A DNA stretch of 64,000 bases from Atractiella rhizophila (taxonomy: Eukaryota). Each line of letters opens with the position of its first letter. Positions within the stretch are counted from its first letter, which is position 1. The translations under genes were made by a program, and so were the position numbers. Positions 24,351 through 48,135 of the stretch are shown here, piece after piece. The DNA is taken from NCBI GenBank assembly GCA_021432655.1, contig MU271382.1, forward strand, positions 1 to 64,000, read 5' to 3'. The notes under the pieces are model-generated. The model worked only from the letters and a program-made list of their open reading frames with translations, was not told the DNA's origin and did no database searches.

Positions 24351-27109
24351 GCTAACCTGAATTCACAGCATTTTGTATGAGATAGGTCATAGAACACGAC
24401 TGTTGACAGGAATCAAAGGTTTTGAGATACGAGCCCTTTCCAAGACCCAATCCTAACTCGTTACACTCTCCACTCCATGAGCATATGCCGGCAATTCTGG
24501 GTTTGTTTGACTTAGTGGCGAGGTGGGTTAGCAATGGTTTTCACCCGTTATTGCCCATGTGACATAATTTCCAGAAGGGGTGTTTCATGTTCAGCCGAAA
24601 AAGTTCAAACCAACCCATGTTGAAACTTTCATATTACTCTCTCTACATTTGCCTGTTGGCATAACTCACACTAAACTAGTCCATTAGCCCCTGAGGGTTA
24701 TTTAGGACCGCACCAGGCCCATATTTTGTTTCTACACCTTGCTGGATCCGACAGTTACAGAGTGTTTGGGGATGGCAAGGTGCTTTTAAACCTCATTTAC
24801 CTCATTTTGAGCTCCGGCCATGACGTGAGATCCCATTCTTGACAACTCTCAGCATCCGATGGGCTCATCAAGTCTCGGCAAGGGAGGAAGGAAAGAGAGA
24901 GCCAGAGTTACTCCGGGTTGACTGTGGGAGACTGCTCAAGGTGCGCCGACTGGTCTTTTCTGGTTACAGTTAGGGTTATTGTGTTTAGAAGGTTTCGTGC
25001 ATATCTGAGAGTTAAGGTGATGTAAAGATACATGGGCACTGGCGCAGGCTTTTCAATTGGAGTCGTTTAAGTGAAAAATATTAGATTCAGGGATAGGTTT
25101 ACACCCATTGATCAAATAGGGAACAAAAAGTGTTGTGGAGAGTGAATCGATGGAGTGCTGGCGAAGTACAGTGTTTTCCTTTGGCTCCAATTGAAATTGT
25201 GCCGCAGGAGGATTGAGGATCGTTTGACATTAACTGAATTGCAAGAAGAGAAAGATAGATCTTAAGGACGTCGGAGATGGTGTGTTGGTTGTAGTCTGTT
25301 TCTCCGTTAGAAATTGCAAACTAACGCTAACGCTTTCCACCACTTCATCATGATTGCATCATGAGACTTACGAGTTCTTCCCGCAGCACTGGAAGATCTG
25401 TCCATCCTTCATTTCCTACCTTTTGTTCTTGCGTCTGACAAACTGCTCGTCCTGAGTTTATCCCTCATGCTCTCAACTCCGCCTGCTTCTATGCATCCTT
25501 ACTTACGGATGATTTTTGGTTCAGATATCTCCTCCACCGTATTCCTCTCGTCTTCTTCTCTCTCCACTATCAATTCGCACTATTTAGTTGCCTTTTACCT
25601 GGTTCTCCTGCTTGCTAATGGCGTCCGCTGCAGATATTATTTCTTAGAGTCTTCCGGCGTTCAACAAATCAGTACTCGCTCTAGTCTAATTATCATCGGC
25701 GCCATCTATCATCCTTTTTCAACGCGATGGATACCTCACTCAACCCCTCTTCATCACATACCAACGATCACGATCATGAAGGCCGTGGAAAATTGTCTGA
25801 TGACGATAACCGATGGGGCGCCAAATCGCAGGAAATTCCATCTCTGTAGAACGTGACGCAGTTCACACCGTCTCGGTGCCGCAGTTGCATCCTCAACCCA
25901 ACCCATTTCTGGTCAAAGCGGCAATTCTAGCTCAGCAATTTCACACCCTCTTACATACCGCTGAGAGCCGATGTTCCCACCCCAATAGCTATCTTATTCT
26001 TGGTCTCCTCCCAAGTTTAAACTCCCAAATCTTCAAAGTCCCGGAGAATGTCAAAAAGACAACAGAACAACAAGTTCGAATCCTCGCCATCAACAACGAG
26101 GCATCAACAATGGCGGCATCTGTACTGTCCCCACCCTTTACATGCTTGAAGTTGTCATGCTCCAAGTTGGGGACCTCCTTCAAGTTCCAGAGGGAGAAGA
26201 CGTCTGGCCGTGCGATGTTTTCGATCCCATCTGCGGGACTTCCACAGGAGGGTGGATTGCCCTTATGTTCGGACAATTGGGAATGACTTTCGAGAATGCA
26301 TACGTGCATATGAGCAGATCTACCACATGTTTTCTCCGTAGATGCTCTAATCTCAAAAGAAGGCAACTCATACTCTGAAGAGAGGCTCGAAGCCGTCTTC
26401 TTTGAGATCATTGCACAGTTCGCTCCATCATCAGAACAATTGTCCCATCTTCCTATGAAGGATGGCAATGTCGCAGATCAATGCAACACTTTTGTCGGCT
26501 CAAGATACGAATCAGCGGCGGTCATTTTGACGGAGCTGTGCACGTACGACGCCCATCATTCACCTCGCTTTGCTGTTCAATGTGTGGTGTGGAAAGCAGC
26601 AAGAGCACCAGAATACGAAAGATACTAGGCATCAAGAAACCAATCTCCTGCTAGCGGCTATCACAAGGCTCAGCAGATCGAGGCAGAGATAGGGAACGGC
26701 AGTAAAAAGAGTGCACAGTAGAAGGCAGTTGTGGTTCTGGTGTTGTCATTCCCTCTCTTTGCTGCTTCCAACGTCCTTTCCAAGCCTTCCCTCAGTTGAA
26801 CGCATAGTGACTCGGTCCATTTTCTCCTCGCTACAGTATTCGGTATCTCCTCTCCATCCTCTCTTCTTCAGGTGGAGTGGAAGCGATCAAGACGTCTGAG
26901 ATCTACCTCCTCAGCACAACCCTGCAAATGGTTCGCAAACACAACGCTGGACTGCCGTTTGTCCCGCACTTATCCCTCCTTGGCGTATGATTGTCACATG
27001 AAAGTATGTACGGACTGGATGGGGTACGTCACAAATGTTGTGTGTGAGGTCGCATGTAGCCGTCAAAACCAGCGAGAGATACGAGGTGCGATTCACTGTG
27101 GTAGGATTT

Positions 27110-27328
27110 GGAAATGCGGACACATAAGGGTGAGGAACTGTTCGAAAAGTAAGCTAATAGTGGAGGTGTCATATAATGATGTACTTGCCAAATTCCTCCT
27201 CTCCCCAATCCTGACCCAGTTCTCTGCTCCGCCAACCATCATCCGAGCTCTACCCTATGCGGCCTAGTGCCATACCTGGTAAGGCTAGCCTCATGCTCAT
27301 CAGCGCAGCTGACATGGTCCTGACAAAG
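27110..27328 (+). repeat. Dispersed ~220-bp repeat, copy 1
   Basis: Collinear, highly similar to 54490-54715 (GGAAATGCGGACACATAAGGGTG...GGTCCTGACAAAG). Confidence 0.85.
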
Positions 27329-28795
27329 CGGCTACCCGTCGTTGGACAAACTTCCAGCCCGATCGTAACACGGAAGGCATTATCTGGTATATCATACCGT
27401 CACTTTCACGACAGGCGTCGTCCTGAACTGCTAGAGCGCCGTCAGTTTATCCCACTCAATAGCGCTGGAAAATTGCCCACAATCCCAATTCCTCAAGGTG
27501 TCATGATACTTATTCACGACTACCCAACTTCGTCAATAACCCACAAGAATTGAGGAAGGCTTTAAATCCCTCTCTGACCCTCTCCGACTTCAGTCACTGC
27601 CAATCCAACACTTTCCAGTGATGTCAGGAGTGGCTTTACTGTCACAGCAGCAGTCATATCTTCCATATCTGATTTTCTCTTCATACTTGGTATCCTCGTC
27701 AAAGTATATTGGAGGCGAAAATGCGACATCGCATTCTCGTATCGCTACCCCAGTGGTGACTTCAGTCACGTCGCATGCTGAAGGTCCGCAGAGCAGCAGG
27801 GAAGGCTTTGCGCTCATTGGGATCGCACTGACTGCCATTGGATGTGCGCTGTATATCGTCAGCGGGACAGCCTACCTTTTTGGTGAGTTGCAATTGCAGA
27901 AGGAGGAGCAAAGGATGGATCAAGTACGTCGGTGGAGGGCAAGGCAGTGGATTCTTCACCTTCAAGTCTGTGTCAGTATCCTGCCGTACCCTGATGACCA
28001 TAGCGATAACTTATCTCTACTAGCTGCCTAAGTCTCTGATCACTGTAGGTCGACGTACCAAAGGAAGTGAAGGCAAAAGTCGTGGTACAGGAAGTTGAAA
28101 GTTTCATTTTGTTGATTCAAAAAGAAACAAGCGGAACGATGAAGCTGACAGCGGGGATGGTGACGATGGTTAGAAGCAGCAAGCGGGAAGGGTTGGGACG
28201 CAATACATATCAGTCCAGAAGCGAAACGAGATCAGAAAATGAGAAGGAAAGCACAAACCATACCTGTTGTCCATTTAGCCCTGTCATCCAAGTTGGTAGG
28301 TTGGGAGAGGTAAGTCCGTCGAAATGTGCGAGAAGGCACAAACACATGCGCGAGGAGTGAGGGTGAATGGTGAAGGCGGGTGCAAAAGGGGAGAGGGAGC
28401 ATGGAGGGAGGACGAAGGGCATGGGGACGCTGGACGTCAGGGACGGCAGGGGAGGGACTCGGAGCAGGTGCAAGCAGAATCTGTGACAATGAAATATTAG
28501 TTGAAAAATGAAAAATACAATGAGAAGAGAAAATGAGAATCAGAAACAATTTGGATGCGCATCTTCCCTTGTGCGGTTTACTACGTGGACCTCATGGACA
28601 AGGGGTTCGGCGGAGGAAGAGTGAGAACTTATTGTTCTCTTGCCGCCACGTCACTTGACGTCAATGGAGGCACGAGGCACCTTCAAGTTCCAAGCGGACC
28701 TTGAACTTTTCTTGTCACTCTTATCACTAAGGGACGATCATTTAACCCTCGTTTACCCCAAAGGCATCCTTATTATTCACAATATTGCCAACATT

Positions 28796-28945
28796 ATGCT
28801 GAGGCATGCACAGCGTAGCAGAGATATTAGACGGGGACAAAAACCACGTTTTTCTCGCAGTAAGAAAGGTTAGTTACTGGCCTTAATTATTGCTTAAGGT
28901 CGTTTTTGACCAGCAAGTACTTCAGGCTGCTTGACTTGCCGAGAA
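28796..28945 (+). pseudogene. Zn2Cys6 transcription factor, 5' part (before insertion)
   Basis: MLRHAQ...FSRSKK G|intron 28869-28925|CLTCRE; continues in frame at 44879 as RRVKCGEEKPECANC. Confidence 0.9.
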
Positions 28946-29259
28946 TTCCCTGTGAACAGTCCAGGCCAGTTTTTTTTGACCACTGGTTTTTAGTGCTGGT
29001 AATTTACCTGGGCAAGGCTGGTAAAAATGAACCAATACCGGGCGAGAAAGCGGGAACGTCGAGCCTGGTTTTTTACTGGTGAGTAAACAGGTTTTTTTAG
29101 CTGTTTTTACTGGGGAAGCCAGTATTCAATGATTCACATTTCTGCAGGCAAAACCACTGCGACGACACCCCGAGTTCAATCAGGATCAAGTAGTACACAC
29201 ACCTTGGTGAGTAGTTGTTCCTTGGAGCAGAAATGCCAGGCTGAACTAACTGCTGCATG

Positions 29260-29655
29260 CTGATTTCACGAGCCAGGTGGACGAGCTGATACGAATTGCT
29301 AGCCGTTCCCAATGTTTGTCGCGATTTCTCTACTTATCAGGGCTCAAACATGCTGAATAGAGAATTTTACAGGTCTAAGAAGCGCTTTCCGCCCTTCTCG
29401 CTCTCGAAAAACAAACCAGTTCGGCATCTGACCAGCCTTCGACGACACGAATGCTTTTGGTGATCGTGAAGTTGTTGAGTGAAAGGAGAGACTGGAATGA
29501 ACTGAAGGAGCAGGTTCAGGCGTTGAGTAAGAAGCATGGACAACTTAGGGAGAGCACGAAGAAGATGGTTGGAGCGGTGATGGAGGTTTGGGAGGCGGCA
29601 AAGGCAGAGGAGGATGAGAGAGAGGGACTGACGGTCAGTCTGAGGGATGTTATGG
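29260..29655 (+). pseudogene. RPN5: 26S proteasome lid subunit RPN5, 5' fragment part 1
   Basis: DFTSQVDELI..|intron|..LLALEKQTSSASDQPSTTRMLLVIV..DWNELKEQVQALSKKHGQLRES..KMV..LRDVM. Confidence 0.88.
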
Positions 29656-29944
29656 CATCGTAAAAAAGCTTTAATGACTGACCAACATTGATCAGGCCAT
29701 TGGTGCCGTCAGGGCTCGGCTAAGTGACCGTGAGTGACCAGCTAGTCAATACCCCGAGATTGTGTGATCAGAAGCGCATCAGAAACTCTAGGCGGCTCAA
29801 TCAGGCACATTTCAAGTAGTGCTCAGGGAACAAGGAGATGTGGTCAGCAGCACGTCAGTAATCATATGCAATTGTATCAGCTTAGTCTCAGTCAGTGAGC
29901 AGATAGTAGGGAGTTGTGGTTGGAAGTGTATCAAGAAATGACCA

Positions 29945-31503
29945 CATCAGCACTTTCTGGACGGGTGTCTATGGAGCTATGAGCCCTATGATAGCTCATA
30001 GGGCTTTTGTCACCTGGTCGCTATCCTAGACCCCTAGGAGCGGCACTATAGCGCTATAGCGCTATGACTGAGTCACCTCGTTTGCTTCCTTATTTCATTT
30101 GCAGGCTCCTTCTCGTGCTTTGTGACATATATGTGCAATGAAATCCATTATATTAATCAAGGCAATCTCATAGTTTACACATCTTGCACTGTAAAATTGA
30201 ATCATTTGCTTGTTCTATCACAACCCATCACGACCTCCTATCCAGCCTACAGTTTCACCGTTCTAATGTTTAAGATAACCTTTTTGATTTGAGGAAAAAC
30301 GTGAGGAAAGAGGGAGGTAGATCGGATGTGCTGTGGGTTGTGTGGAGCCGACCTGTGCTAAACAGGGCGGGTTGACACAAGGTCAACAAACCGTCTTACC
30401 GAAGTGCCTGTCTACTAGCTGTGAGTGAAGGGACTTTGGGAGATATATTGACTCACAAATAGTGCGCAGATCTATGTCAGCAATGTAGCTCAAGTAGATT
30501 GAAACATTTTCATGTCACTTTGCTCCTTCCTCAACTCAGATTAGGACTGCCATTAGAATGATGACCTTACTCACTAGATTCAACACTGAATACTAGAACA
30601 TTTGAAGTTCTGTGGTCTCACCACAGCTTAACAGTCCAAGCCGCTTCAATGACCATCCGTTGACTCCTGGGACCGCTTTTTACCGCATGCATTCAGGGGA
30701 ATTGAAGAGAATGTAAGCAGGTTCTTCACCTCATACGAGCAAGTGGGGCAGAGGCGGATGGAACGGTGTCACGGATGCGCATGAGGAAAGGGCGAGGGGT
30801 AAGCTGTGATGCGGAGCGTAACAGCAAGACCGTTGCAGGTGATAAGAGGTTCGGTGAGGAAGGAGCGTAAGCGGGAGGATGGAGAGAGACAAGGTCTAGA
30901 CAACAATGTAAGAAGAAATATGAAGAGTGTCACACATCTTCCCATCTTGTTCCTCTGACCGACGGTATGCCGAAGAGAAGGACAACACACCTTTAAAACT
31001 TCTCTACACTCCACATAGTCCCACACCTAAATGAGCACAGTTCACAGAAACAACTCCCTTCAGGCTGATCCAGATTCCATAACAGTGATGGGGTTTGTTG
31101 CACACAGTCACAGCACTAGATTGCAGAAGGTGAGTTGGTCAGTTGAGATGCAGCTTCCAGGTCCAGAAAGGATGTCGAGAGAAAGGGAAGGTTTGCACAA
31201 AGGCGACAGCTGCGGAAAATTGGGTAAGGAGATGTTGAAGGAGATGCAGATGAATGTTCGATGCGGATGGACTTTGTGAAAATTTTTCAAGGAGGGCAAC
31301 AGCCCCTAACCCACTGGCCCCCTATGCAATGGAAATGCGGTGAGTCACTCTGGAGCCATGGATTAGTTTCAAAGTTTGCGTTTACAGTTTGCCATAGGTT
31401 CAACGAGGTCCTATAGCACCATAGGACCACCTAGCAGCTCCTAGGAAGGGTCTATACGGTGGTGCTAGGATAGACCGTATAGCACCCAGGGAAATTGCTG
31501 ATG
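29945..31503. mobile_element. Non-autonomous CATC-terminal element nested in Plavaka, 1,559 bp
   Basis: TIR CATCAGCACTTTC / GAAATTGCTGATG (12/13); CA TSD (29943-29944, 31504-31505); CTATAG/CTAGG subterminal repeats. Confidence 0.85.
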
Positions 31504-32537
31504 CAAAGCTGTCAAGTCTGATTCAGCTGGTGATCAGGTCGGTGGGAGCAGCGGAGGGATGTTTGTCAGGTTGGCTCATTCTGCTTATTTTCACTCTTTT
31601 GTGCTGGATGAGTGTCTTGTTCGAGTGCAAGTCGACCGATAGTAATGGATTGCAGCATGCGTACATACACTCCATTTCCCTCCATCTAAAACACTCCCAA
31701 ACCCACACTGCTCGTGAACCCTGCCTCTTACATTATCACGATCCGTCTCTTCGCTTTCTATACTCGTGGCACATCTCACGGTGGGCATCGACGATTAAAC
31801 ATCGGTCGCAGGGGGTGTGCTGTGATAGGAGGGGAAAGCTCGAGCGGTGCATAGAGATGCTAGCCTGGATGCTGGCGGGTACCGGGTGGAGAGCAGGCGG
31901 GCATGAAAACAGGGATAGGAACAAAAGTGAGTGAGTTAAAAGACAGAGAGACGAGTAGGAAGGGGAAGAGGGAACGAACATACCGCTGTCAGATTTCCTG
32001 CAGTCCACCGCAACCCTCCCCACATCTCTCAGAAGCGAAGTGATGAGAAGGAAGACAAGTCAGGGACACATGCATGTTTTGTCTCGATTCGCCGTGTAAA
32101 TATGAATGCAGCAGAAGGCGACAGGCATTCCGGAGCGGATGACAATGTGTTTCTTCCAAAACAAGACGGCTGAGCAAAATGACTTCCCATGTCGCTGTAT
32201 TCATGTTCAAACCTCCACAATGCTCATATTCTCGACAAATTGCGATTCAAAATGACAAAGACATGCAGTAGAGCAAGAGTGCTCCTGAAGCTTACTGCGT
32301 CACTTTCCGCTCAAAATAAGCAGGGAGTGCTTGAAATCTGACGTGACACTCCGTAGCTTTTCAAATTCAGAGTTCATTAACATTCCTCTCCTCTCAGAAG
32401 AGTTCGCTTCATCCAAACACAGACGACAAAAGCACTCACTTGCTCAGTTCAAGTCTCAAACACCGCCTAATTTTATATCCTCTAACCACCTATTTCATTA
32501 TTCAAAGTCAATACAGCGTGAGACTGTGAGATGCAGC

Positions 32538-32562
32538 AGAGAGAGAGAGAGAGAGAGAGAGA
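32538..32562. repeat. (AG)n microsatellite
   Basis: About 12 AG units. Confidence 0.9.
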
Positions 32563-33369
32563 GTAAATGTTGGCGGTTTGCTGCTTGGTTTTGTCTTCCT
32601 TTTGCCACCGGCGGCCGGATTTCGAACTTGGGTGTTTTCAATCCATAACCTGTTTGCCATCGTTCACTGATTTTCTTCGCTCGCTAGGGTCGCCGTTGAA
32701 ACAAGGGAGGGATGGGTGCGATAAAGAGGTCCACCTTCATTGGGGACAATAATTTTGGCCAGCTCTTGCAGTTCAAGTTGCGGTCTGATGTTGCAAAAGT
32801 TGGCAAAGAACCCACAAGAGGCTACTTCCCCTTCGAGTCCGTTGCCAGTTCGAGCACAATGCTAAGAGCAATGGCTCCTCATACTGCATTGCCGAAATAA
32901 CAGAGCTCGCAGTATCATTTTATTGTCGTATGCATTTGTAATGTTACTGACTTCTGTTTGCATTGAGAACAGTCTCCTCGCTCTCTGTCGTTCCCTCTCC
33001 AGCTATCCTGTTTCCCTATCCGTCTCTCCGTCCTTGGTACATTCGTCAATGCCATGATGCACTCCTGCCACTCAACTAATGATCATTAAATTCAACAACG
33101 GCTGATACGAAACGGAACCAGATGAGGTACCTCGGCTGAGGGAGGGAGGGCGGTAGTAAGAATATGTTGGTGTGTTATAGCATTGTACTCATGGCTAGTG
33201 TAGCGGGACATAGAACCATTACTGTAATCAACTCTTTCATCCCCATATTGCCCCCTTCCTTTGAGATATGAGCTATCTTTCATTCGCAAAATTGAATAAT
33301 ATTAACATAAAAATAGACAAGAATATGCTATCTACAATACTTTTGCTATGTCCTTGTAAGGAAATGTTT

Positions 33370-34839
33370 CTATTCTTCAACTTCTTCCTCCTCCGGGTTG
33401 AAGTCAACTTCAAATCCTTCTAAATATCTGCATCGCTTGTACCGTGGTGTGGTGCGGAAGAATCCCTTTCAGCATTGTCCTGTGGAAAGACTTCCTTATT
33501 CCATATAGAGATAAGGTCCGTAAATTTGTCCTCATGCTGTGCTCGGATGGTTGAGAGGAGTTTGACCGTTCTTTCGAAATGTTGTCGATAGTCGTTGACT
33601 TCTGTTGTACCCAGTTTGATGGGTACTGTCCCTTCGGCAGAAAAAGCTACATCGCCGCTAAGCGCATATCGAGCCTTCTGGAGTGTGAACATTGTGTTAT
33701 TTTAAGCATGGATGGGGACATACCAAAGTGGAGGAATAAGCCATCAATGGAATTGTTATTTGATGGATTGACAGGTTGCTTCCCGTGGTTGCTCCGCGAG
33801 CACAACGATTTACACTTGTGATCGTGGCAGGTCCGTGAACAATGATGCGTGCAATCTTCAATTTGTAATCAGCAGTTGCTTGGGACAAAAGGGATTCTTA
33901 CTCTGAAGAGAGCTGGGGAACGAAGATATGCAGCAGCCTTGATTGATTTTTGGTGTGAGCTAGTGCCTTGAGCAGGGACTTCGTAAGCAGCGTAAATGTA
34001 ACTTTCGTGGTTGATATGTCGCTGGATTTCTTCATCTTCTTGACGATTTTTTTGGATCTTCAGTTCTGCAGACGTCGAAGATTTGATTTCGAAGATGTCA
34101 ACAAGATTACTGCGCATTCTAAGAGCATTGTCGCTTTTCTGTTCAGCAAGACCGCGTTGTACCTAGAGCTCGATATCAGAATGCAGCATTACATTGAGTG
34201 AAAGTAAATACTTCACTCTGGAACCAGGCACTGCTGTGCCATTGAACAGCTTCAGGCGGAAGCTGCCCAAAGATGAATTTGAGGAAGTCAGACTTCCGGT
34301 ACTGACGACGGACCTACCGTTCTTGATTCCTTCGCTGCCTATCTCTTCTCTCTTCACTATCTTCTTCCTCTCCACCTTCATCATCATCAGATACCACATC
34401 TGGTTCCGCATCTTGTGGATATTCTGAGGTGTCTGATCGTTTGGCAAAGACACTCTCAAGATGTGTTGGCCAAGGATGGTAGAGGAGCACCGCAGCCTTG
34501 CCAGCACGATAAACTTGAACTTTGGCTAGTTTAGAAGGTGCAGAAGGGATGACCCGAGTAGAGCGACGTCTTTTAGAGGGAGGTTCATCTGAATGAAGCT
34601 GCTCTTTCACTGCTTCAAGCTCTTCTTGCATTTTGGCGCGCTCTTCTCCCTAGGTCTGCTCGTTTTCCTCTGCTCTTGCCACAGCTTCTTGTAGCAACAT
34701 CAATTCTCGATATGCACCATTACGCTACAAACATGTCGTCCTTCCTTGCTGAACAAAAGAAATGGCGCACCTGCCGCTTCAGAGCCCTGTACAGCTCCCT
34801 GTAATCTTTCCTCTGTGGTCTATTTTCTTGGTCTGACAT
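33370..34839 (-). CDS. Plavaka accessory ORF, divergent from the transposase (multi-exon, DUF6532-like C-terminus; premature stop near the end)
   Basis: Coiled-coil N-terminus, PPSKRRRS NLS, acidic tract, YLRSPALFR..IPLMAYSSTL..RYALS; TAG at 33420-33422 just before the final acidic tail. Confidence 0.55.
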
Positions 34840-34984
34840 TTGCCCTTGAATGTTGTGCTGGGGAGAAAGAGTTGTGGGCTTTTATAGCCGTAAGAAGAGG
34901 TAAACAAGAATGACGTCATGACCTCAAGACGCGTCTGCTGTTCTCGTCATGATAAACAAGTTATTATTTCTCCATCAAACGACC

Positions 34985-37900
34985 ATGGCTCCTCAAAACA
35001 CAAAAGTAAACACAATCAGAACCTTACCCGCTGGGAAAGTAGAATGCCCTGACTGCCACAAAGTGTTTTCTTTCGCCAAAGGCGGCATTAAAAGACATCG
35101 TGCACTCCAGCACCCAAAGCCTGCTCAGCGAGCAGGCTGGAAACCCATCAAGCTTGATGGAAGGCGTGTTGGAATATTGTCTGAGAATGTGAGTACACTT
35201 TCTTCATCATTTCATATTGCTGATAATTGAAGCAAGGATATCCCCGACTCAGATGGTTCCGAATCAAATAATGAGGAGGATAATTCGAAGGACGGCACTT
35301 GCTCTTGGGTTCACCACCAACGTGATCGTGTTTCCAACTTGTTTTCAGCTTCCTTAAGAACACACTACTGACATGTGCACTTTTTGAAGAGGCTTTCAAC
35401 GCATCACAACCCCACCAATCTCCGGATCCGTCCATACCAACGACCTTGCCTCTCTCATATTCATCATCCAATCCAGTTTCCACTCCAACCTCCTCGTTAT
35501 CTGACAATGAGGAATGGGACACAGCACTTCTACAAGAACTGGGTGGCCCGTATTTCCAGCTTCTTCATCCGGATTCACTTTCTACAACTCCTTTTTCGTA
35601 CCATTGCCACCACGCTCCTTTCAAATCCGCTAGTACAAGAGAATTATCTCCCTATCATCCCTTTAAAACCGAAGCTGATTTTGATATGGGATCTCATGTC
35701 TTTCATCAAGGAATGACACAACGGGACACTACGGCATACTTTCGCAACCTCAAGAAGCACGGCCTACCGCACTTTACACTCGACTCCTTCAAAGATCTTA
35801 GAGAAACACTCAAGAAGGATAGGATGAGTGTCACCACTGAGGTGCGTCATTTTATCAAACACAGTGCATTGACTTATGCCGGTTAGTTTCAAGAACACCT
35901 GATTTCGGCTGAGTTTGATGGAAAAGTGATACAACATCGTATATTTCTTCGAGATCCAATTGATATTATGAAAGAAGTGATTCGGGACGACTCCACCCGC
36001 CAGCATATGCTGTTTTATCCTGTCAAAAAGTTCAAAAGGACTGGGAACCCGCCGTTCCGCAAGGTGACGGCATATGATGAGCTGTGGACTACTAAGCGCT
36101 GGTGGAAGCTTCAAGTGAGTCTTCTTCATATTAATTCACTCACAAGAGTATCATACTCAAATGTTATCAGGACTTGTTACCCAATCACAACGGGTGCATT
36201 GGTGCCATCATCCTATATTCGGATGGGACGAACGCAGTGAAATTCGGACAAAAGACAGTTCACCCAATCTATATGTGGCTGGGGAATGTACCTTTACGAG
36301 AGAGGAGTGCTAGTGGAAAGGAAGGGTGCCAACTCATTGGCTTTCAGCCCGAAGTAAGTACAATAGCTTTCCCTGTTACTTTATGACATCGATTAACGAG
36401 TGAGTAGATTTGAGGTACAGAACAGCAGAAAAAAAACAAAAAGTTTCGCCTATATTGTCGCTCGGTCTATCATAAAGTTTTGGGGATTGTCCTCAGGCAA
36501 ATACGGCGATTTGAACAAGTGGGTTTCAGGGTTAGAGTTGGCAACGAGTTCGACAAGCTGGTGTTTCCACGCCTTTTCCTTTTGCAGGCTGATCTTGCAG
36601 AGCTGTACGTCGTTTCAAATCATTCGCAATGACATAAGTGACTACTACGACAAGTTACAATATGCTCCTCCTTCTTGGAGTTAACTCTAAATTCAGATGT
36701 CCTGTTTGCCTTGTCCCCAAAGAACACCTCCACCTCATCTCTCATCAATTCCCAAAGAGAACAGTGGAACAGGCTCAATTTCATCTGGAGCAATACCGGC
36801 AGACAGAACAGCACGACGGCGCAACTGCAGCGGTTAAAGAGTTGACAAGTACTTCGTCACTACGTCCTGAAAAAGTGCGTTACCATCCCCTCTGCAGCTG
36901 GATCTTATGCCTCGGTAGTCTGCTTTCTATCGCTTGCGGTGTAGCGATGTTTATGATGCCATTGCAGCGGACTCATTACATGTTTTTGGTGGATTGTACA
37001 AGGATCACATTATGCAGAAGATTTTTGAGAAGCTATCGACAGCAAAGAATGAGAAGGTGCACTCATAGTGAGTAAGTGTTTGTGTAGATCCAGTTTGTTT
37101 ATCAATTTTTATTACAGTCTCCTCTCCCTACCTCCCTATGGCTCTTTACGCCATGTACCCAAACGAGGATTGACTAGCCTGGAGAGCTTTACCTGCATGG
37201 AAATTCAGGATGCGATGAAGGTACCTCTCCGCTTCAGTATTGCTGATATCTAATCATAGAATTGGCAGTGCCTAATTGTTGCTATGATCGGGATTCTTCC
37301 TGCTGAGATCGAACAAGAGGTTATTCCTGCCTTACGATCATTAGCTGTCTTCGAGCTTCTTGTCAAGATGCACGTTCAAGAGGAAGATCAAATCGCAGTG
37401 CTACGAAATGAGAAGATTTCATCCTTTGAAGCTGCTCTCAAGGTACATTTCAAGTTTCTGAGGGAGTCTCTAATCCAATTTCCTAATGGTGGGGTTTAGA
37501 CACTGCACGAGCATTTTGGCATGTCGACTAAATTTCCAAAGGGTCACCTACCTGTACATTTTGTTCACATGATCAGCAAAGGTGGAACGCTGGACCATCA
37601 GACCACTGCACATGGAGAGCGAGCACACTGTCCTCTCAAAGAGACCTTCATCGCTCGCGCTGTTCACAGTACGATCGATGGAGAAACTGAAGAATCAGTG
37701 AGTTCACATATTCACAGTTAACTTTAGCTCAAGCAGGTACTTAGATGGCGCATCGTGCATTTGAATTGATGCAGCTCCAAGCGATTCAACGACGGGTTGA
37801 TGCAGCCAATGCATCGCAGCTTGACTGCTCAGCGTGAGACGTCAACTTTCTGTCTCTACGGCTCGTCAAAGGATTTTTATATTAAAACCTACTTCTGCAA

Positions 37901-38491
37901 AATAGCAATAGAATTCAACAACGCCGAGATCTTATCAATGCTCTTCGACTCTTCCTCCTTCGGCTGATGAATCCTTCGACCCCAGCGCGTGTCCGCCAAC
38001 AGCAGCTGCCGCAGATTGATCGGTCTATGGTATGTCCACCTTCAATTCAAGATAGTCATTGATGTATCTCCCAGATTTGTGATTACACGCTCTTCCGTTG
38101 CCCGTTCAACTCATGGATGGATGAAAGGGAGTACGAAGACCTCATCCGCTGCCACCCTGATTGGCAAACGAGCGGGAAACCACGCTACAACGATGTAATA
38201 ATCAGAAATGAAGACTGCACTATCTCTTTTGGGCAACTAGTCCGTTTGTTTTCTTGTCGTGTGGATGGGCGGGAGTTCCAGCTGTTATTACTTCGTGAAT
38301 ACCAGTGGGTCGGAAGGCACCATTTGTCAGGGATGCCTTTCCTCAAAGAACAGGAGGTATTCAGATTCCATCTTCCCACTAGTATTGTTCGCAGTCGCTA
38401 TGTTCAACCGGATCCCATTGACGATGGTTTCTACCATGTCAATGATCTCGCAGAAGCAGATCTATTTCTTCGGTTTCAAAATTTATCCTGA
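34985..38491 (+). pseudogene. Plavaka transposase with N-terminal C2H2 finger (multi-exon, some stops)
   Basis: CPDCHKVF..KRHRALQH; RDPIDIMKE, YDELWTTKRWW, IILYSDGT..FG..VHPIYMWLGN, ADLAE, CPVCLVP, FPKGHLPVH, GERAH, CHPDWQ..PRYNDV. Confidence 0.88.
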
Positions 38492-38735
38492 TCATTAGGC
38501 TCACTATATATTGACTTGAAGTACATGCTCGTGTCGTAAAAATGTGTCGTAAAAATTAAATTTTTTCAGTCTCATTAATGATCAGTACCTAACCGGGACC
38601 CATCAGATCATGCGTAGTCCATCATTCAGTCATCAGGCTTAACCATTCCTCTATAGGTAGTGATCAGTACCCGTTCCCGTCCCCTCAGACGGGGCCGTCA
38701 GGAAATGATCAGTTATTAAAGATTTTCATGATGGG

Positions 38736-38896
38736 AAGGAAAGGTTCGCTTTTCCCTATTCTTCTTATACTTACGTTACGCACTGAGGAGCTGATTTCGG
38801 ATTGATATGATAACAGATCTTCCTAGAACTTGAACGAGCTCGTCTCACTCGCCGACTCTTTGCGATGCTCGAAGCAAAGGGAGGGGTGGCAGAAGC
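38736..38896 (+). pseudogene. RPN5: RPN5 5' fragment part 2
   Basis: (E)GK|intron|IFLELERARLTRRLFAMLEAKGGVAEA, then abrupt truncation. Confidence 0.85.
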
Positions 38897-41800
38897 GTAA
38901 CGGATCATCCAAGAAATCGCAATTGAGACTTTCGGCGCCGTTGGCAGGAGAGAGAAGACGGCCTTCATCTTGGGGCAGATTAGATTCTGGAAGCTCCGTT
39001 GCTAACAGGCTTCTCCGAAACCGTGGCACCCCAAGGCATCTCCATCGACTTCCAATGAGCCATAGCGTAGCCATGACCAGGAGAAGCAACGAGTACTTAG
39101 GAGAACTATACAAGTTGATTGGAGAAGAAGGTTTGACGCAGGTTGCCTGCATGATAAATAGGATCCACTATCCAGGTGTGTCCTCTCTTGCTCAAGTTTA
39201 ACCGGCCGGTTCCATCCTAAACTACGTGGGGGGCAGCGCTGAACTTTCTCATTTCACAAATCTCTTCCAACATCTCGATACCTTAACACTGCACCCATCC
39301 ATCATCCACCCGTCTCCCCGTTCGCTTCCTCTTCCACCTCTTTCTCCACAAAGAGCTTCGTTCGAATGGTTCACCCCTACCGAGAAGATTGTCCGCACAC
39401 TGGCCATGTTGTTCTCCACCTCAACTTTGTCGTTCTTGAATCTCGATTCGACTTTGATAGACTCTGAAGCTTAGCCACTAGGTCAGATGGAAACAGCACA
39501 GGGAGCAGGATGATTGTCAGAGTATTGTGATAAGTCAGTATCCCCTCTTTCTAAGCCTTATCTCACAATGAGCATGACCTCTTCGAATTCTAGCCGGATA
39601 TCCTCATGCAGTGGCGGACTGGGGGGAAACGGAGCAAGCTTGCTATGGAGATAAGACAAGTGAGTGTGGCCACAGTCAAAAGCGCTCAATTGCTGAGGGT
39701 TATTCGGTTCCTGAGGTGTCGGTAAGAGAAGTTGCGGAGGGACAGGAACCCAGGGAGTTGACAAGTCGGTTTCGGTCGAACAGGAGGGCGGATGAAGAGA
39801 GAGGATGGAGAGAATCATGCCAAAAAGATCGGACACTGCTTAAAAGGAGAATGAGTTAGAAGGAGAAAGCACACAACGGTGGTAGAAGCGAGAGGAGATA
39901 CCTGTCATGTGGGATGTGGGACAAACTCCAGCTAGAATCCATGCTGTGCAGAGTATGATTGAAAGACTGTTTGAAGCGATTAGTCCTGAACGAGTGCGAG
40001 TGAGAACAGACATGGATGTTCATAAGCTCATCGCAAATCGATAATTGCATCCCGTTGTTTCGAAATCTCAACGTACGAGACTCCTGCCGATGCTCGCTAG
40101 AGGTTGATATCGGGAATGGCTAATGGAAGGGAGAGCAAGTGGGCCATGGCAAAGCGGAGTCGGGACTACAAACGAGCGAGTTATATTAACGCCTGAACAA
40201 AAGAAAGAACTTAGCTTACCGTTGAGGTTTATCTCTGTGATCCATCTCTCGGCACCAGGCGGCCGTCGACATGTCGTAGCCCTCAACAAGTTCCGAGACG
40301 GGAGAGAACTTGCCCAATAGACCAGCACTTCGTCCATCCACATCCACACCTCGGAAGATTCTGCTCCTGCGGAAAGGGAGTGGGAGAGGTGGAGAGGCAT
40401 CGTTGTGAAGCCACGAAAGACAGGCGGTGGCAAGATGATAGATGGCGAGGGGAAAGTGAAAGTCATGGCGGAGACGATTGAGAGCATGAGAGCTACCGAA
40501 CACAAGAAATCTTCAGCAGAGAGAAAAAAACCGGAGGAAGACCATACCAGATAAAGATCCCAATCCTGTACACCTCCAGATACTGTACCAAAGCAGAAGG
40601 AAATTCTCTGTCTTTTACAAAACTGTTGCAATAGCTCTCAGTCCACAGAAATGAGGATCTTCTTCTGCTTAGGCACAGTGCTGGAGGACGGAGTCATCGT
40701 TATGGGCGGAAGTTAATTCAAGAACGCCGTCCATCGTCAAAAAGGGCTGCTCGTCGTGGTAGGCTGTGGTAGGTATAGGCATAGGCAGATGAGGAAGATA
40801 CCTGTGCCCCTCTCCTGCACAGCGACAGCGCTGCAATCAGACAAAGTGAGAATGGAACTTCCTTGCACAGAGAAGTCTCCAAAGTGCAAACTTCGCATCT
40901 GTAAACGCCTGTCACCGCACAGATGCCCAGGCCACAATGCAGAAGCTACCCTTTTTAAGCGTAACGGATCATCCAAGAAATCGCAATTGAGACTTTCGGC
41001 GCCGTTGGCAGGAGAGAGAAGACGGCCTTCATCTTGGGGCAGATTAGATTCTGGAAGCTCCGTTGCTAACAGGCTTCTCCGAAACCGTGGCACCCCAAGG
41101 CATCTCCATCGACTTCCAATGAGCCATAGCGTAGCCATGACCAGGAGAAGCAACGAGTACTTAGGAGAACTATACAAGTTGATTGGAGAAGAAGGTTTGA
41201 CGCAGGTTGCCTGCATGATAAATAGGATCCACTATCCAGGTGTGTCCTCTCTTGCTCAAGTTTAACCGGCCGGTTCCATCCTAAACTACGTGGGGGGCAG
41301 CGCTGAACTTTCTCATTTCACAAATCTCTTCCAACATCTCGATACCTTAACACTGCACCCATCCATCATCCACCCGTCTCCCCGTTCGCTTCCTCTTCCA
41401 CCTCTTTCTCCACAAAGAGCTTCGTTCGAATGGTTCACCCCTACCGAGAAGATTGTCCGCACACTGGCCATGTTGTTCTCCACCTCAACTTTGTCGTTCT
41501 TGAATCTCGATTCGACTTTGATAGACTCTGAAGCTTAGCCACTAGGTCAGATGGAAACAGCACAGGGAGCAGGATGATTGTCAGAGTATTGTGATAAGTC
41601 AGTATCCCCTCTTTCTAAGCCTTATCTCACAATGAGCATGACCTCTTCGAATTCTAGCCGGATATCCTCATGCAGTGGCGGACTGGGGGGAAACGGAGCA
41701 AGCTTGCTATGGAGATAAGACAAGTGAGTGTGGCCACAGTCAAAAGCGCTCAATTGCTGAGGGTTATTCGGTTCCTGAGGTGTCGGTAAGAGAAGTTGCG

Positions 41801-43020
41801 GAGGGACAGGAACCCAGGGAGTTGACAAGTCGGTTTCGGTCGAACAGGAGGGCGGATGAAGAGAGAGGATGGAGAGAATCATGCCAAAAAGATCGGACAC
41901 TGCTTAAAAGGAGAATGAGTTAGAAGGAGAAAGCACACAACGGTGGTAGAAGCGAGAGGAGATACCTGTCATGTGGGATGTGGGACAAACTCCAGCTAGA
42001 ATCCATGCTGTGCAGAGTATGATTGAAAGACTGTTTGAAGCGATTAGTCCTGAACGAGTGCGAGTGAGAACAGACATGGATGTTCATAAGCTCATCGCAA
42101 ATCGATAATTGCATCCCGTTGTTTCGAAATCTCAACGTACGAGACTCCTGCCGATGCTCGCTAGAGGTTGATATCGGGAATGGCTAATGGAAGGGAGAGC
42201 AAGTGGGCCATGGCAAAGCGGAGTCGGGACTACAAACGAGCGAGTTATATTAACGCCTGAACAAAAGAAAGAACTTAGCTTACCGTTGAGGTTTATCTCT
42301 GTGATCCATCTCTCGGCACCAGGCGGCCGTCGACATGTCGTAGCCCTCAACAAGTTCCGAGACGGGAGAGAACTTGCCCAATAGACCAGCACTTCGTCCA
42401 TCCACATCCACACCTCGGAAGATTCTGCTCCTGCGGAAAGGGAGTGGGAGAGGTGGAGAGGCATCGTTGTGAAGCCACGAAAGACAGGCGGTGGCAAGAT
42501 GATAGATGGCGAGGGGAAAGTGAAAGTCATGGCGGAGACGATTGAGAGCATGAGAGCTACCGAACACAAGAAATCTTCAGCAGAGAGAAAAAAACCGGAG
42601 GAAGACCATACCAGATAAAGATCCCAATCCTGTACACCTCCAGATACTGTACCAAAGCAGAAGGAAATTCTCTGTCTTTTACAAAACTGTTGCAATAGCT
42701 CTCAGTCCACAGAAATGAGGATCTTCTTCTGCTTAGGCACAGTGCTGGAGGACGGAGTCATCGTTATGGGCGGAAGTTAATTCAAGAACGCCGTCCATCG
42801 TCAAAAAGGGCTGCTCGTCGTGGTAGGCTGTGGTAGGTATAGGCATAGGCAGATGAGGAAGATACCTGTGCCCCTCTCCTGCACAGCGACAGCGCTGCAA
42901 TCAGACAAAGTGAGAATGGAACTTCCTTGCACAGAGAAGTCTCCAAAGTGCAAACTTCGCATCTGTAAACGCCTGTCACCGCACAGATGCCCAGGCCACA
43001 ATGCAGAAGCTACCCTTTTT
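38893..43020. repeat. Tandem duplication of a 2,064-bp unit (38893-40956 and 40957-43020)
   Basis: Identical ORF translations offset by 2,064 bp; no nucleotide differences noticed by eye. Confidence 0.95.
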
Positions 43021-44878
43021 TGACTTCTCTGTCAAGTCAACAAGAAACACACCGGAGAATCACCTCGCCACCCTTCCACCTCAGATCATCAATCTTCTGC
43101 CCTTCTTTCGAATAGTTTGACTCAGGTACTTGACGGCGCTGAGGCTACGCTGGAGCTGGAGCTGTTGTTGAGTTGAGGACTTTGCGTCCGTCGTCTGCTG
43201 AGCAACTTGAGGAATGTTTGGCCACATTTGTCTCAGACTGTGCTGAAACTTAGAAAGTTTTCAAAATCGACGAACTCGACTCCTCCTCGACTCCCTCAAA
43301 CGGCATTATTCCGGTGTCATCATCCTCCTAAATCGATATCGACATCCCCCCATCTCGTTTCCACCCCATCGCAGGTTTTTGACGCGAAAAACACGTTTTT
43401 TTCTCGCCTTCAGCACTTTTTGGGAACCCTGCCTCGACGAACATTCGATGCCATTTCAACGTCAGGTCTCCTTTATGACAAATGAATGTGGATTCTTAGA
43501 TGGTTCTTATGTCTCCAGCTAAGTAGCCATGCGTCGGTTGATGGGAAGGTCTCGGAGTGAAGGAATTCGAAGGAATGTAGTGAACGCATACAAGGGGATG
43601 GGAAGGTGCTCTAGCCGCATCTTCACACTCTGTGAGTGTTTTAGAATATATAGTATGGTTTTGTGGGCGTGGAAATCGTTTTCGCGAACTTTGGTTTGGT
43701 TCGAAAGTGTAGCTGTTCCATGGAGGGGGGACTTGAAGCTTGAAGAAGAAGTGACGCGTTTTCTTTCAATTTCTATACGTTTTTGCCTTGCTTTAAACGT
43801 TTGACATACGCTGATAACACTCCTTATTCCTTAGATTCCTTCAAACACTCATTTTGCACTTTCGGCCCATCTCGGTTCGCCTTCTCACAGACAACTTCTA
43901 ACTCGTTTGTCTTACGTTTATGCAAGGAACCCTCATCCCAATCGAGCCGATAATACGTCAAGAGAGTAGTGGAGCAGCAGACTGGGTATTGGTGATGAGC
44001 AGTTGAGGGTTAGTACCTTCATTCTTGTGTCATGTCGTACCTTCATCGTCTTCTTCCTCTAACTCGGGTGTAGGCTTAATTTGTAGCAATCGAGATGTTC
44101 GAGCGAGTTTTGTACAAGGACTTGGAGGACGCGAAGCGCAAGAGGAAGCTCCGACGGCGATGCGCAAGAAACTGTACCAAGGTTTGGTCTCTTCATTTTC
44201 ATTGTGGTTCAATGTTGTCTTCTTCTAATTACTCGTTACTAGGTCATGCAGATCGTTATTGTGCCTTGGAAAGGAGTCGGAGTGGAAGCAGGATAGAGGC
44301 AGCAGACGGCGGACGAGGGGGCGCACGAACAGCGGAAAGGCGAAGGCGAAGGCGTCGTATTAGCAGATTGCTAAAGCAAACTCCGTTCGTGCTCTCTTGC
44401 TTGTCTTCCTTCGACTTACTTGCTTTGTTTGTGGCTAGGCTGATAGCCTGTGTCTAGAGGGAACCAGGGATTCACACAACATCGGGTTGCAATTATCATT
44501 TCTCTTTTTATAACAATATTTCTGCGAGAATATGTGAGCAAGAGCGGCGATTTTGAGAATACCGTGCCCGGTAATCAAATAAGGAGTCCCTGTGAGAATA
44601 TCGAACAGAAACTGGGTGAGATGGTAAAATAATTGGTTATTTACCTGTTGAAGTCCAGTCTGGACACAAGTAAATAACCAGTCTGGAGCACTGGAAACCG
44701 AGGTGCGGTCCTTTCATCCCCGCTCCACTCTCTCTGGTAATTTACCAGTCCTCCCTTTTGAATTACCTGGATTGCCACCTGGTATTCTTGCAACTTCACC
44801 AGAGTGGACTCTGGTAAAAAACCAGACCAGGTAATCCTTCAAAAAACCTGCCTGGACTTTCTACACGGCGGCCGAGAA

Positions 44879-46780
44879 CGACGTGTGAAATGTGGCGAAG
44901 AGAAGCCAGAGTGTGCGAATTGTCGTCGACTATTCCGCAATTGTGTCTACGGAAACAACCCGAAAGCTGCACCGCAAGATCAAGAGCAGCGATATGCTAA
45001 ATCGAATTCTCAACCAGCTGAGGGATCTCCTCAAGCACAACCCCAATATACCTCATTATTTCGAGCAATGCCACCCAGGGTTCATTCCAAACCGGCAGGG
45101 GTAGGGCAGTGCAGTCTTCCAATAGCCCAACCAGGTTGGCGTCTTTTGCCAATGCCTTCCACAGCAGACCAACCTCAACCCTCATCAGGACCCTATTTGT
45201 CATTAGATCAACACACGTCAGAACTTCACAAGCAAGCAAATCTATTCCCCCAACAACAACCGATCCAATTAGCGGCGCAAGACATGAGTCTCATCCAGCA
45301 CTTCCTGGATGTTCTTGCGCCTACGTCCAAAGCGATCGAACCCAAACAACCGAACTTTTGCTCGATTTGTTTGTAAAATCCCTCTTTTGTGAGCCTCTCT
45401 ATGATGGTGAGAATTTCAACACCTTACTGTCATAGCTGAACAATAGAATAGGCCTCTTGGCTTATTCTGCCCTCCATGTGAGCAGAAGAATAGATCGACC
45501 TGATCTCCTTACTACTGCCCATTCCAAACATCAAAGGTCCCTGATGCTTCTTGAGTGTTCTTGGGACATCTCTGTAGCCTTCCCCAACATCGAGCTGATC
45601 CTCCCTACCTTGGTTATTTATGCTCTATGGGAGGTCAGTCACGGGACGACTTCTCGAACAATGAACCTCGTCTTCAACATGGCACAATGTTGTTTTTCTC
45701 CGCCGCCTCACTAACCTTAAACAAATATATTACGTTTGGCTGAGCTCTCGCAAACGCATGAGCAGCAGAAACACAAGAACAGGTGTTTATATACATGAGA
45801 GCTTGTGGCAAATAGAAAGTTCCAGAATGTTCATGAACAAAGTATTACTAACATTTTACACATCTCCAACACACAACAAGCACTGACCTTTGCCAACCAG
45901 ACTTTTGCGAGTTTATCTTCTACCGGGAAATCCTGCGCCATCATCCTTGCTCGACTTTGCTTCACCTCGTCTTCTTTTGGAGCTCGGACGCCAACATTTG
46001 TGCACTGGCTTTTGCAATCCACGGCTGGACCTTCCGTTGGAAACCAGCCCTTTATGGACATTCCTTCTGTGCGTGTAGACTGGCTACAGTGAGCCTTTAT
46101 TTCTCTTCTGCCAACGCGGATACAAGGAATGTGGTGTAGGTTGTTTCAGTTTGCTGCGCAAGTGTCGATGCTAGATCGCGAGCTGCAGTCGTTTCTCACC
46201 TCCTTCTTTGCGGCAGAACAGTTTGACACAGCAATTCAAAGAGGCAGGGCGATTCTTCAACGCATGATTTCGCTCGAGGAGCAATTGGATGGTGGCAATG
46301 ATTTTCACGAGCTTTATGACATCGATAAAGTCCCGACCATCCTCATCACCTTTGCCCCCGACCTGCTCAACCTCATGTACAAATCCGTTTTTGTCAATTC
46401 TCTCATCATTTACCTGGGCCGAATTATCCATTGTCGACCCGAAAGTCATCACAGTGCAAAAATCGTAGCGACTGCAACGACAATCGCTCAATCTGGTGAA
46501 GACCCATCATACCATATCTTCCCTTGGTGTTTGCTTTTGGCAGGGTTGGAAGCTTCAAACCCACAGAATGTATGCCATCTATAACCGGGAATGTTACGCT
46601 AATATTGCAAGGTAAAAGTATTGCCGGATATCTGCATGTTTTGATCGCATGGCTTCTGCTGGTTGGATTTCAACGAAGCCAAAACTGCTTATGGAACAAA
46701 TCCGCGAGGACGAAGCGAAATCAGGACGAATTCAGCTGTCAGAAATAATTTTACAATCGGAGCACTTGGTTGTTTTGTGA
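44879..46780 (+). pseudogene. Zn2Cys6 transcription factor, 3' part (fungal TF domain)
   Basis: RRVKCGEEKPECANCRRLFRNCVY; later exons LAYSALHVS.., FPWCLLLAGLEA; stop at 46778-46780. Confidence 0.88.
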
Positions 46781-47314
46781 TTGTGGCATAGTCGAGATGA
46801 GATGGGCACTTTGGTCACGTGCAAATCCAGTTTCTTTGGCTTGAAGAGGTGATGCGTACGGGGCTCTGTTTCTTCTGTTGGATGGATGCACCTAAATGAG
46901 CGAAAGAAGGGAGGATCCCAAAGTAAAAGAACAAATAAGCTCAGTAGGCTAGGCTCTGTGAATCCATTCATCCGTCACGTCATCCGCCGTCTCCACGTAA
47001 GCTTCCTGGTCCGCCTTAACGGTCAACATCTCCAAACTCCCGAACTCAAGTACTCGCAAATCCACAGCCATGATCCTTGGCCAAACTCGCAGAACGCATG
47101 AACGCTCAAAAGTGCGACAACGACCACAACAACAATTCATGACGAAGGCCAAACAAGATGTCAGAGTGAGGCTACGAGGCGAGATATTAGAATACATTTT
47201 CTCATAACTAAATCTTAATAAACAACTGAAGGATGGATGTGAAATACGTAGCATAAAAGTAGGTGATCGAAAACCATTGAAATATGGACACAAATCGTAA
47301 CAGAAAGAGAAATC

Positions 47315-48048: not shown

Positions 48049-48135
48049 AACGCACTAATTCTGATCAGGTTGGGTCAAGTTTTCGAGACAGACAGCCAAA
48101 GCGAAGTACTGGGGCGAAGAGGGGAGAAGGGTTAA

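Follow-up and report, generated by a model that had tools for sequence, protein, structure and literature searches.

A very probably Pack-type, gene-capturing DNA element with RPN5 cargo and a nested PlavakaB in a Zn2Cys6 gene of Atractiella rhizophila

Introduction

Plant Pack-TYPE elements (Pack-MULE and Pack-CACTA) are non-autonomous transposons with terminal inverted repeats (TIRs) that amplify fragments of host genes (PMC8903248, PMC6379663), and in fungi, from which such elements have been reported only now and then, the hAT elements of the Dothideomycetes Pyrenophora tritici-repentis and Pseudocercospora fijiensis have transduplicated histone H3 (PMC6710886; PMC3538342). Another described system with which the present locus can be compared is that of the non-autonomous elements of the Ac/Ds type (PMC3260210). 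The literature searches yielded no paper that puts the 'Pack-' label on a fungal element, the available portion of PMC8903248 makes no mention of fungi, and no paper in the open literature pairs Atractiella rhizophila with transposable elements. Here we describe a stretch of 64,000 nucleotides of this fungus (positions 1 to 64,000 of the forward strand of contig MU271382.1, assembly GCA_021432655.1; hereafter the window, whose coordinates are used throughout), in which an inserted element of 15,925 bp interrupts the zinc cluster of a Zn2Cys6 transcription factor (TF) gene. The element is very probably one copy of a multi-copy, non-autonomous, gene-capturing TIR transposon of the Pack type, carrying a piece of the proteasome gene RPN5 and a second transposon, PlavakaB, nested inside it.

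Insertion site and element ends

The insertion is delimited by a target site duplication (TSD), TIRs and subterminal motif arrays, as listed below.

28796-28945 (+): 5' part of the Zn2Cys6 gene, consisting of exon 1 (28796-28868), an intron (28869-28925) and the opening 20 bases of exon 2, up to ...GCLTCRE
28938-28945: left TSD copy, GCCGAGAA, 8 bp
28946-44870 (+): whole inserted element, 15,925 bp, composed of a backbone of 4,781 bp, PlavakaB of 9,078 bp, a 2-bp TSD and a tandem unit of 2,064 bp
28946-28975 (+): left TIR, 22/30 matches to the right end, with the core AGTCCAGGC followed by a T-run
28983-29080 (+): left subterminal array, five CTGGT motifs, e.g. CTGGTAATTTACC and CTGGTTTTTTAC
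44677-44830 (-): right subterminal array, five CTGGT motifs reading inward from the end
44841-44870 (-): right TIR, pairing with the left TIR
44871-44878: right TSD copy, GCCGAGAA, 8 bp
44879-46581 (+): remainder of the Zn2Cys6 gene, with RRVKCGEEKPECANC...C of the zinc cluster and a Fungal_trans_2 open reading frame (ORF) at 46093-46581

The interrupted gene opens with a start codon at 28796, and its 57-nt intron at 28869-28925 is of the GT..AG type. Since the bases outside the two GCCGAGAA copies differ, the TSD is exactly 8 bp long and the element occupies 28946-44870. When 28945 is joined to 44879, i.e., when the element is removed together with one GCCGAGAA copy, the reading frame of the zinc cluster is restored and gives MLRHAQRSRDIRRGQKPRFSRSKKGCLTCRERRVKCGEEKPECANCRRLFRNCVYG..., in which the six cysteines are spaced CX2CX6CX5CX2CX6C, the canonical zinc cluster. 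Of the 39 positions in the Pfam Zn_clus model, the downstream ORF by itself covers just 7-36. This truncated match, together with the position of the insert in the rebuilt reading, places the insertion between the second and third Cys codons, where it is predicted to destroy the DNA-binding domain of the regulator.

The 30-bp ends are inverted repeats without gaps, matching in 22 positions and differing in their outermost bases (TTCCC... on the left, CGCCG... on the right). For a chance test, the window provided 28,236 exact 8-mer pairs with a spacing of 200-25,000 bp, and the 30 bases inside each pair were scored as inverted repeats. The GCCGAGAA pair obtained the top score, 22/30; the next two pairs scored 19, one of them being a genuine hAT element (see below). 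The core AGTCCAGGC is present in the 64-kb window at the two element ends only, and no second copy of these ends occurs within the window. Moreover, the 220 terminal bases of the two ends together contain 13 CTGGT/ACCAG motifs, where the window composition predicts 0.79 (about 16-fold enrichment), and the five CTGGT motifs at each end share their orientation relative to that end. The arrays are presumed to be transposase-binding sites. An earlier reading of this DNA made from the letters alone (the sequence-only reading) had already claimed the 8-bp duplication with an exact rebuild of the gene, the ungapped but imperfect TIR with differing outermost bases, and the subterminal CTGGT/ACCAG arrays, all of which reappeared in the present analysis.

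Public sequencing runs provided contigs for comparison, X1 and X2 representing one sample and X3 a separate study. The contigs were compared with 26900-40956 at 85% likeness, a span outside which the right arm, the right junction and tandem unit 2 of the element lie, and the results given here and below are among the differences, indels, joints, loose ends and pieces listed for them. Two X3 contigs pass from exon 1 of the TF gene to the insertion site uninterrupted, with a single copy of the 8-mer and with the intron 28869-28925 (+) skipped exactly. They differ from the rebuilt site in 2 of 30 bases and encode CLTCRKRRVK. Against the exon-1 region 28768-28866 they show two other letters and nine gap positions, so that their source is an orthologue, a paralogue or a different allele; whichever of these origins holds, the closest relative of the TF gene is uninterrupted at the insertion site. 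The exact skipping of canonical introns means that X3 behaves like a transcript assembly.

Captured RPN5 fragment and chimeric reading frame

The cargo with a recognised origin is a piece of RPN5 (PSMD12), now in two parts.

29027-29078 (+): first exon of a chimeric ORF (MNQYRARKRERRAWFFT-), lying in the left subterminal array with a GT donor at 29079, located by tblastn of P0001 and P0002
29259-29655 (+): RPN5 fragment, part 1, for parent residues ~10-124, interrupted by an intron-like stretch with stop codons
38736-38999 (+): RPN5 fragment, part 2, consisting of an exon end (38736-38743), an intron (38744-38816) and the exon for parent residues 127-188

The ORF at 29379-29660 matches Pfam PSMD12-CSN4_N with an E value of 1e-22. 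A database search with the RPN5 ORF returned five relatives, four of which are named Atractiella rhizophila (NCBI). Two full-length A. rhizophila RPN5-like proteins, of 480 aa (P0003) and 498 aa (P0004), are 87% identical to the fragment, and two short A. rhizophila models, of 170 and 173 aa, are 95-97% identical to it. P0004 also carries a PCI domain and is the full-length parent, located elsewhere. P0003 and P0004 are near-identical and stand on two different contigs, one of the two diverging in its C-terminal third as if frameshifted, which suggests two haplotypes or a duplicated locus.

In a tblastn of P0004 on the window, residues 10-123 are found at 29259-29651 and residues 127-188 at 38814-38999; according to our reading of the insertion sequence, residues 124-126 fall at the Plavaka insertion site. 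The captured piece thus corresponds to residues 10-188 of 498, and the 5' part of RPN5 named by the sequence-only reading acquires in P0004 a parent with 87% identity. The stretch 38744-38816 is 73 nt long with GT..AG borders, and both intervening stretches are spliced out in the gene models. The intron-like stretches kept in the fragment point to a capture at the DNA level, from genomic DNA.

Overall, the RPN5 fragment is carried by five short gene models of A. rhizophila, 136-173 aa in length, on five contigs of 42.7, 292, 77.5, 92 and 128 kb. Four of the five start with MNQY.AR.RERRAW.FTG, and an in-frame stop at 38898-38900, within the RPN5 fragment, is the one at which P0001 and P0002 have their C-termini. 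With this shared start inside the element end and this shared stop, the short models are chimeric ORFs of other element copies.

Nested PlavakaB

Between the two parts of the RPN5 fragment lies a second insertion.

29656-38733 (+): nested PlavakaB bounded by CATCG...TGATG, the ends forming an inverted repeat of ~28 bp with a single indel, 2-bp TSD GG at 29654-29655 and 38734-38735
35887-36629 (+): Plavaka transposase remnants (PF18759), split over three reading frames

PlavakaB is nested inside the larger element, and it splits the RPN5 exon of the first block. The PF18759 matches fall on three consecutive ORFs in different frames (E values 5.5e-7, 1.1e-8 and 7e-5), two of them above the curated cut-off. 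PlavakaB is defined by CATCA..TGATG ends and a TSD of 2-3 bp (Kojima 2025, PMC12730594); the CATCG end of the nested element has one mismatch to CATCA, and the published consensus PlavakaB-1_AuCo likewise begins CATCG (PMC12730594 supplement). In the available parts of that paper, Plavaka belongs to the EnSpm-like CMCT clade and not to KDZ, its families are described from Agaricomycotina alone, and no TET-carrying Plavaka is given for Pucciniomycotina (PMC12730594).

The form without the nested element was met in other copies. In one contig each of X1 and X2, 29652 is followed after one letter by 38734, with a single GG and one substitution, i.e., an exact Plavaka-less form. The gene models P0001, P0002 and P0011 are likewise without Plavaka and read continuously ...RDVTEGK... 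across this place. The nesting that had been read from the letters alone thereby gains the element's own ends, its GG duplication and a Plavaka-less form in other copies.

The runs also contain PlavakaB copies, which differ from the window copy in an internal stretch of 1,569 bp (joint 29942->31512) and are without one base at 36133, where the transposase frame of the window copy breaks. Contigs of X3 are nearly exact at 30457-30675 (-) in Plavaka, skipping short GT..AG introns.

Backbone and tandem unit

The remaining part of the element contains a perfect tandem duplication and an arm with little to recognise.

38893-40956 (+): tandem unit 1, 2,064 bp, starting within the RPN5 fragment
39766-40088 (-): spliced transcript of three exons from an X3 contig, introns 39836-39901 and 39966-40011, both GT..AG
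40957-43020 (+): tandem unit 2, 100% identical to unit 1
43021-44870 (+): right arm of the backbone, no recognisable coding content

Subtraction of PlavakaB with its TSD (9,080 bp) and of one tandem unit (2,064 bp) from 15,925 bp leaves a backbone of 4,781 bp, which agrees with the value of about 4.78 kb calculated in the sequence-only reading; the tandem copy assumed in that calculation is also there, 38893-40956 and 40957-43020 being 100% identical. None of the 59 backbone ORFs of at least 45 aa reaches any Pfam cut-off, and the transposase homology inside the element is solely that at 35887-36629, within the separately bounded PlavakaB. The earlier statement that the element lacks its own transposase therefore stands.

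Two further pieces of cargo named in that reading, an 'unidentified coding fragment' and a 'decayed Cys-rich ORF', could not be upheld, with no protein family, PDB or ESM Atlas support for coding. Among the backbone ORFs, the longest (189 aa, on the minus strand) returned only a near-identical model of 71 aa from another copy and two low-complexity matches with E values of ~5e-4 to 9e-4, and the sole match of the ORF at 40108-40317 was P0011, i.e., another element copy. Three backbone ORFs compared with PDB sequences gave a best E value of 0.048. For two ORFs containing Cys, the ESM Atlas offered no usable match, and the recognition scores were low. In tandem unit 1 beyond its RPN5 start no family or parent gene was recognised, and no Rfam families or tRNAs were found in 28500-45500.

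The X3 contigs agree almost exactly with 39766-40088 and, as in Plavaka, skip short minus-strand GT..AG introns. Both the backbone and Plavaka are thus sources of spliced antisense transcripts in whatever organism or mixture X3 represents. The tandem duplication either arose very recently or was created by the assembly; no joint that 'goes back' for it is among the 15 run joints listed.

Other copies of the element

The element family is multi-copy. Among the findings that would speak against it, the sequence-only reading had named termini that occur nowhere else with 8-bp TSDs. The element does occur elsewhere: its RPN5 fragment is found in gene models of five contigs, and another left flank is available as well. 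The latter comes from an X1 contig that brings another flank to the left end at 28946/28947, whereby the last letter of this alternative flank, C, would match the C that starts the right end. At the left junction of the window copy itself (28945/28946) no bridging piece is among the pieces listed, which is uninformative either way.

Of the sampled words of 38734-48733, a fraction of 0.69 was found in X1, 0.68 in X2 and 0.08 in X3. The flank contig 27992-28870, with zero differences to the window, has a depth of 126.9 in X1 and 90.5 in X2, and the Plavaka-less contig has 1261.9 and 848.1, respectively, which is approximately 10 times the depth of the flank contig. The family comprises about ten copies, as estimated from contig depth, which is not a copy number. 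The listed backbone contigs are approximately 2-3% off the window (15/601 and 16/737 differences). A further joint, 38816->40122, skips 1,305 bases (38817-40121) at a depth of 872.3 in X1 and 418 in X2; this variant without 38817-40121 has the structure of P0011, which reads ...EGK straight into the region of 40122.

Metagenome contigs were also searched for the ends of the element. The 24-nt word of the left end had no matches in them, and a degenerate two-end pattern had one (L001), which is a chance match with no BLAST similarity to the window.

Rest of the window

Apart from the element described above, the window contains the following features.

4069-8388: complete-looking hAT element, 4,320 bp, inverted ends TAGGGATGGCTATCG (15/16), exact 8-bp TSD GAAATTCA; its plus-strand ORF run ends in a Dimer_Tnp_hAT domain (7412-7900)
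19308-19997, 56188-56581 and 61331-62021: three gene copies ~72% alike, with weak F-box-like matches
20364-21356: DUF4218 match below the Pfam cut-off, just before an N gap (21380-21989)
22373-23179 (-): copia-type piece, gag and zinc knuckle, adjoining the same N gap
27110-27333 and 54490-54720: 230-bp repeat, 90.5% identical
27452-27854: 403-bp stretch in the left flank, skipped in a high-depth run contig, no TIR or TSD found
50407-51718 (-): copia-type piece, RVT_2 and an SH3-like domain

The F-box-like trio resembles a local family of host genes more than transposons. A candidate for a third element at 46788-50698 (8-bp repeat ATTGTGGC, TIR 19/30) is probably a product of chance, since a copia reverse transcriptase ORF (50407-51279) crosses its right end.

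Discussion

The Pack-type reading, first made from the letters alone, is now carried by the TIR and TSD, the lack of an own transposase, the host-gene fragment with its parent elsewhere and the presence at several loci. A number of points weigh against it. The TIR is weak (22/30) and its outermost bases differ; the 8-bp TSD is seen in this copy alone, the other copies showing one left flank; no autonomous partner or transposase with matching ends was found, and both the mobilisation in trans and the superfamily are matters we infer. RPN5 is the only cargo piece with an identified parent, and the perfect tandem duplication, being without read support, could be an assembly artefact. Furthermore, the window may derive from the sample of X1 and X2, in which case these runs display copies within one genome and are not an independent confirmation, and the X3 transcript may represent an orthologue, a paralogue or a different allele instead of the empty allele of the TF locus.

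With regard to the superfamily, the architecture is most like that of hATs, but the terminal bases are not. Ac/Ds elements have an 8-bp TSD, short imperfect TIRs and arrays of short subterminal motifs, and the usual hAT termini are of the (C/T)A(A/G)NG type. The element shares with hATs the 8-bp TSD, the short imperfect TIRs and the subterminal arrays within ~200 bp of the ends, and the same window contains a hAT (4069-8388) that has an 8-bp TSD and encodes a Dimer_Tnp_hAT domain. However, the TTCCC.. and CGCCG.. termini of the element are without the (C/T)A(A/G) start and have nothing in common with TAGGGATGG (TAGGG), with which the window's own hAT starts, and the backbone is without a hAT domain. 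The known fungal gene-capturing DNA transposons are hATs, as far as the available part of PMC6710886 goes. Taken together, it is possible, if rather doubtful, that the family is a Ds-like non-autonomous hAT derivative moved by a hAT transposase that binds the CTGGT arrays.

Mobilisation by a KDZ (Dileera/Zisupton) transposase, which the sequence-only reading had considered possible, is unlikely. It would fit the 8-bp TSD, which is known from Zisupton and from the Dileera family Zisupton-1_PGr of Puccinia graminis (PMC12730594, available part), and it would fit the host, which belongs to the Pucciniomycotina as P. graminis does. Nevertheless, two Dileera consensus 5' ends (first 400 bases, Table S1 in the accessible material of PMC12730594) start with GACCTTT and, compared by eye, are unlike the element ends; no KDZ domain occurs anywhere in the window, and the sole nearby transposase, that of Plavaka, belongs to the EnSpm-like CMCT clade. 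Two other groups were set aside on the basis of their ends: Kyakuja has a 7-bp TSD and CA..TG ends without a TIR (PMC12730594, available part), as opposed to the 8-bp TSD, the TIR and the other ends of the present element, and Merlin has a conserved terminal 5'-GG with a TSD of 8-9 bp (PMC8101967), while the element ends start with TT and CG.

It is highly improbable that the structure stems from misassembly, or from a segmental duplication without transposition that interrupts the TF gene. The N gap at 21380-21989, the suspicious 100%-identical tandem repeat of 2,064 bp and the repeat-rich region might raise such a concern, but a misjoin would not yield an exact 8-bp duplication whose removal restores the six-Cys motif in frame, the inverted-repeat ends have symmetric motif arrays, and the same element unit is found on at least five other contigs. 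That the whole 15.9 kb is one autonomous element using Plavaka as its transposase, with nothing nested, is hardly credible: Plavaka is indeed the only transposase homology inside the TSD bounds, but its segment has its own inverted ends and 2-bp TSD and splits the RPN5 exon, other copies (contigs and gene models) are exactly without it, and Plavaka makes TSDs of 2-3 bp and not of 8 bp (PMC12730594, available part).

For the Pack-type element, we propose the following history. The backbone encodes no transposase and must therefore be moved in trans; the 4.8-kb backbone would be served by the DDE transposase of an autonomous relative, which would recognise the imperfect 30-bp ends and the symmetric CTGGT(W)nTAC-like arrays. 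An 8-bp staggered cut of the target by such an enzyme would leave the GCCGAGAA duplication, the duplication itself being observed. At an earlier stage, the family would have taken up the genomic RPN5 piece (residues 10-188 of 498) and then amplified to about ten copies, in several of which the piece may be read as a chimeric ORF of 136-173 aa that starts in the subterminal region of the element. The window copy inserted between the second and third Cys codons of the Zn2Cys6 gene. Either before or after this insertion, PlavakaB entered the window copy and split the RPN5 exon, and the same copy would have gained the perfect tandem duplication of 2,064 bp. One could go further and, with little likelihood, see in the element an undescribed fungal TIR lineage (8-bp TSD, C...G termini, AGTCCAGGC core, CTGGT(W)nTAC arrays) whose ends agree with those of neither hAT, Dileera/Zisupton nor Merlin elements and which routinely transduplicates host genes, its truncated RPN5 ORFs perhaps being expressed and affecting the proteasome or RPN5 expression as a dominant-negative or a source of small RNA.

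The locus represents a clean, well-bounded case in which a non-autonomous cut-and-paste transposon appears to have captured and amplified part of a gene, in a host from the Pucciniomycotina, an early-diverging lineage of basidiomycetes. Five or more annotated "hypothetical protein" models are accordingly chimeric ORFs of a transposon, each based on a piece of an essential proteasome gene, and insertion of a recently active family into the zinc cluster has probably inactivated a Zn2Cys6 regulator. With about ten copies that differ by some 2-3%, with structural variants and with a nested PlavakaB by which events may be dated, the family is tractable for finding the transposase. The locus also places a PlavakaB-type element in Pucciniomycotina. 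No new principle is involved, since Pack-type capture is textbook knowledge in plants and hAT transduplication is documented in fungi.

Comparison with known systems

The nested element alone compares with PlavakaB, which it resembles in its CATCG...TGATG ends, 2-bp TSD and Plavaka transposase homology; it differs from the Plavaka families in the available parts of PMC12730594 in its host, a member of the Pucciniomycotina, and in that the copy here is frameshifted. With the plant Pack-TYPE elements, the larger element shares a non-autonomous TIR and TSD structure, an amplified host-gene fragment and chimeric ORFs. TSDs are 9-11 bp long in MULE and 3 bp in CACTA elements. In contrast to the plant elements, the present one has a fungal host, an 8-bp TSD, termini that match neither MULE nor CACTA, and one identified captured gene.

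The histone H3 hATs of the Dothideomycetes, in the available portions of their descriptions, are similar in being fungal TIR transposons with an 8-bp TSD, a captured housekeeping gene and many copies. They keep, however, a hAT transposase domain, carry an intron-less, transcript-derived whole coding sequence and live in ascomycetes that bear repeat-induced point mutation (RIP), whereas the element of A. rhizophila has no transposase, contains a fragment with intron-like stretches and resides in a host of the Pucciniomycotina. The similarity to Ac/Ds concerns the 8-bp TSD, the short imperfect TIRs, the arrays of subterminal motifs and a transposase supplied in trans; the difference is in the terminal bases, which are not hAT-like.

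The sequence-only reading had described gene capture of this kind as best known from plants. This is correct insofar as it is classical there, but it is less exotic in fungi than was implied, hAT transduplication being documented in them (PMC6710886, available part). By analogy with these systems, the element may be viewed as a functional counterpart in fungi of the plant Pack-type elements and of fungal 'transduplication'.

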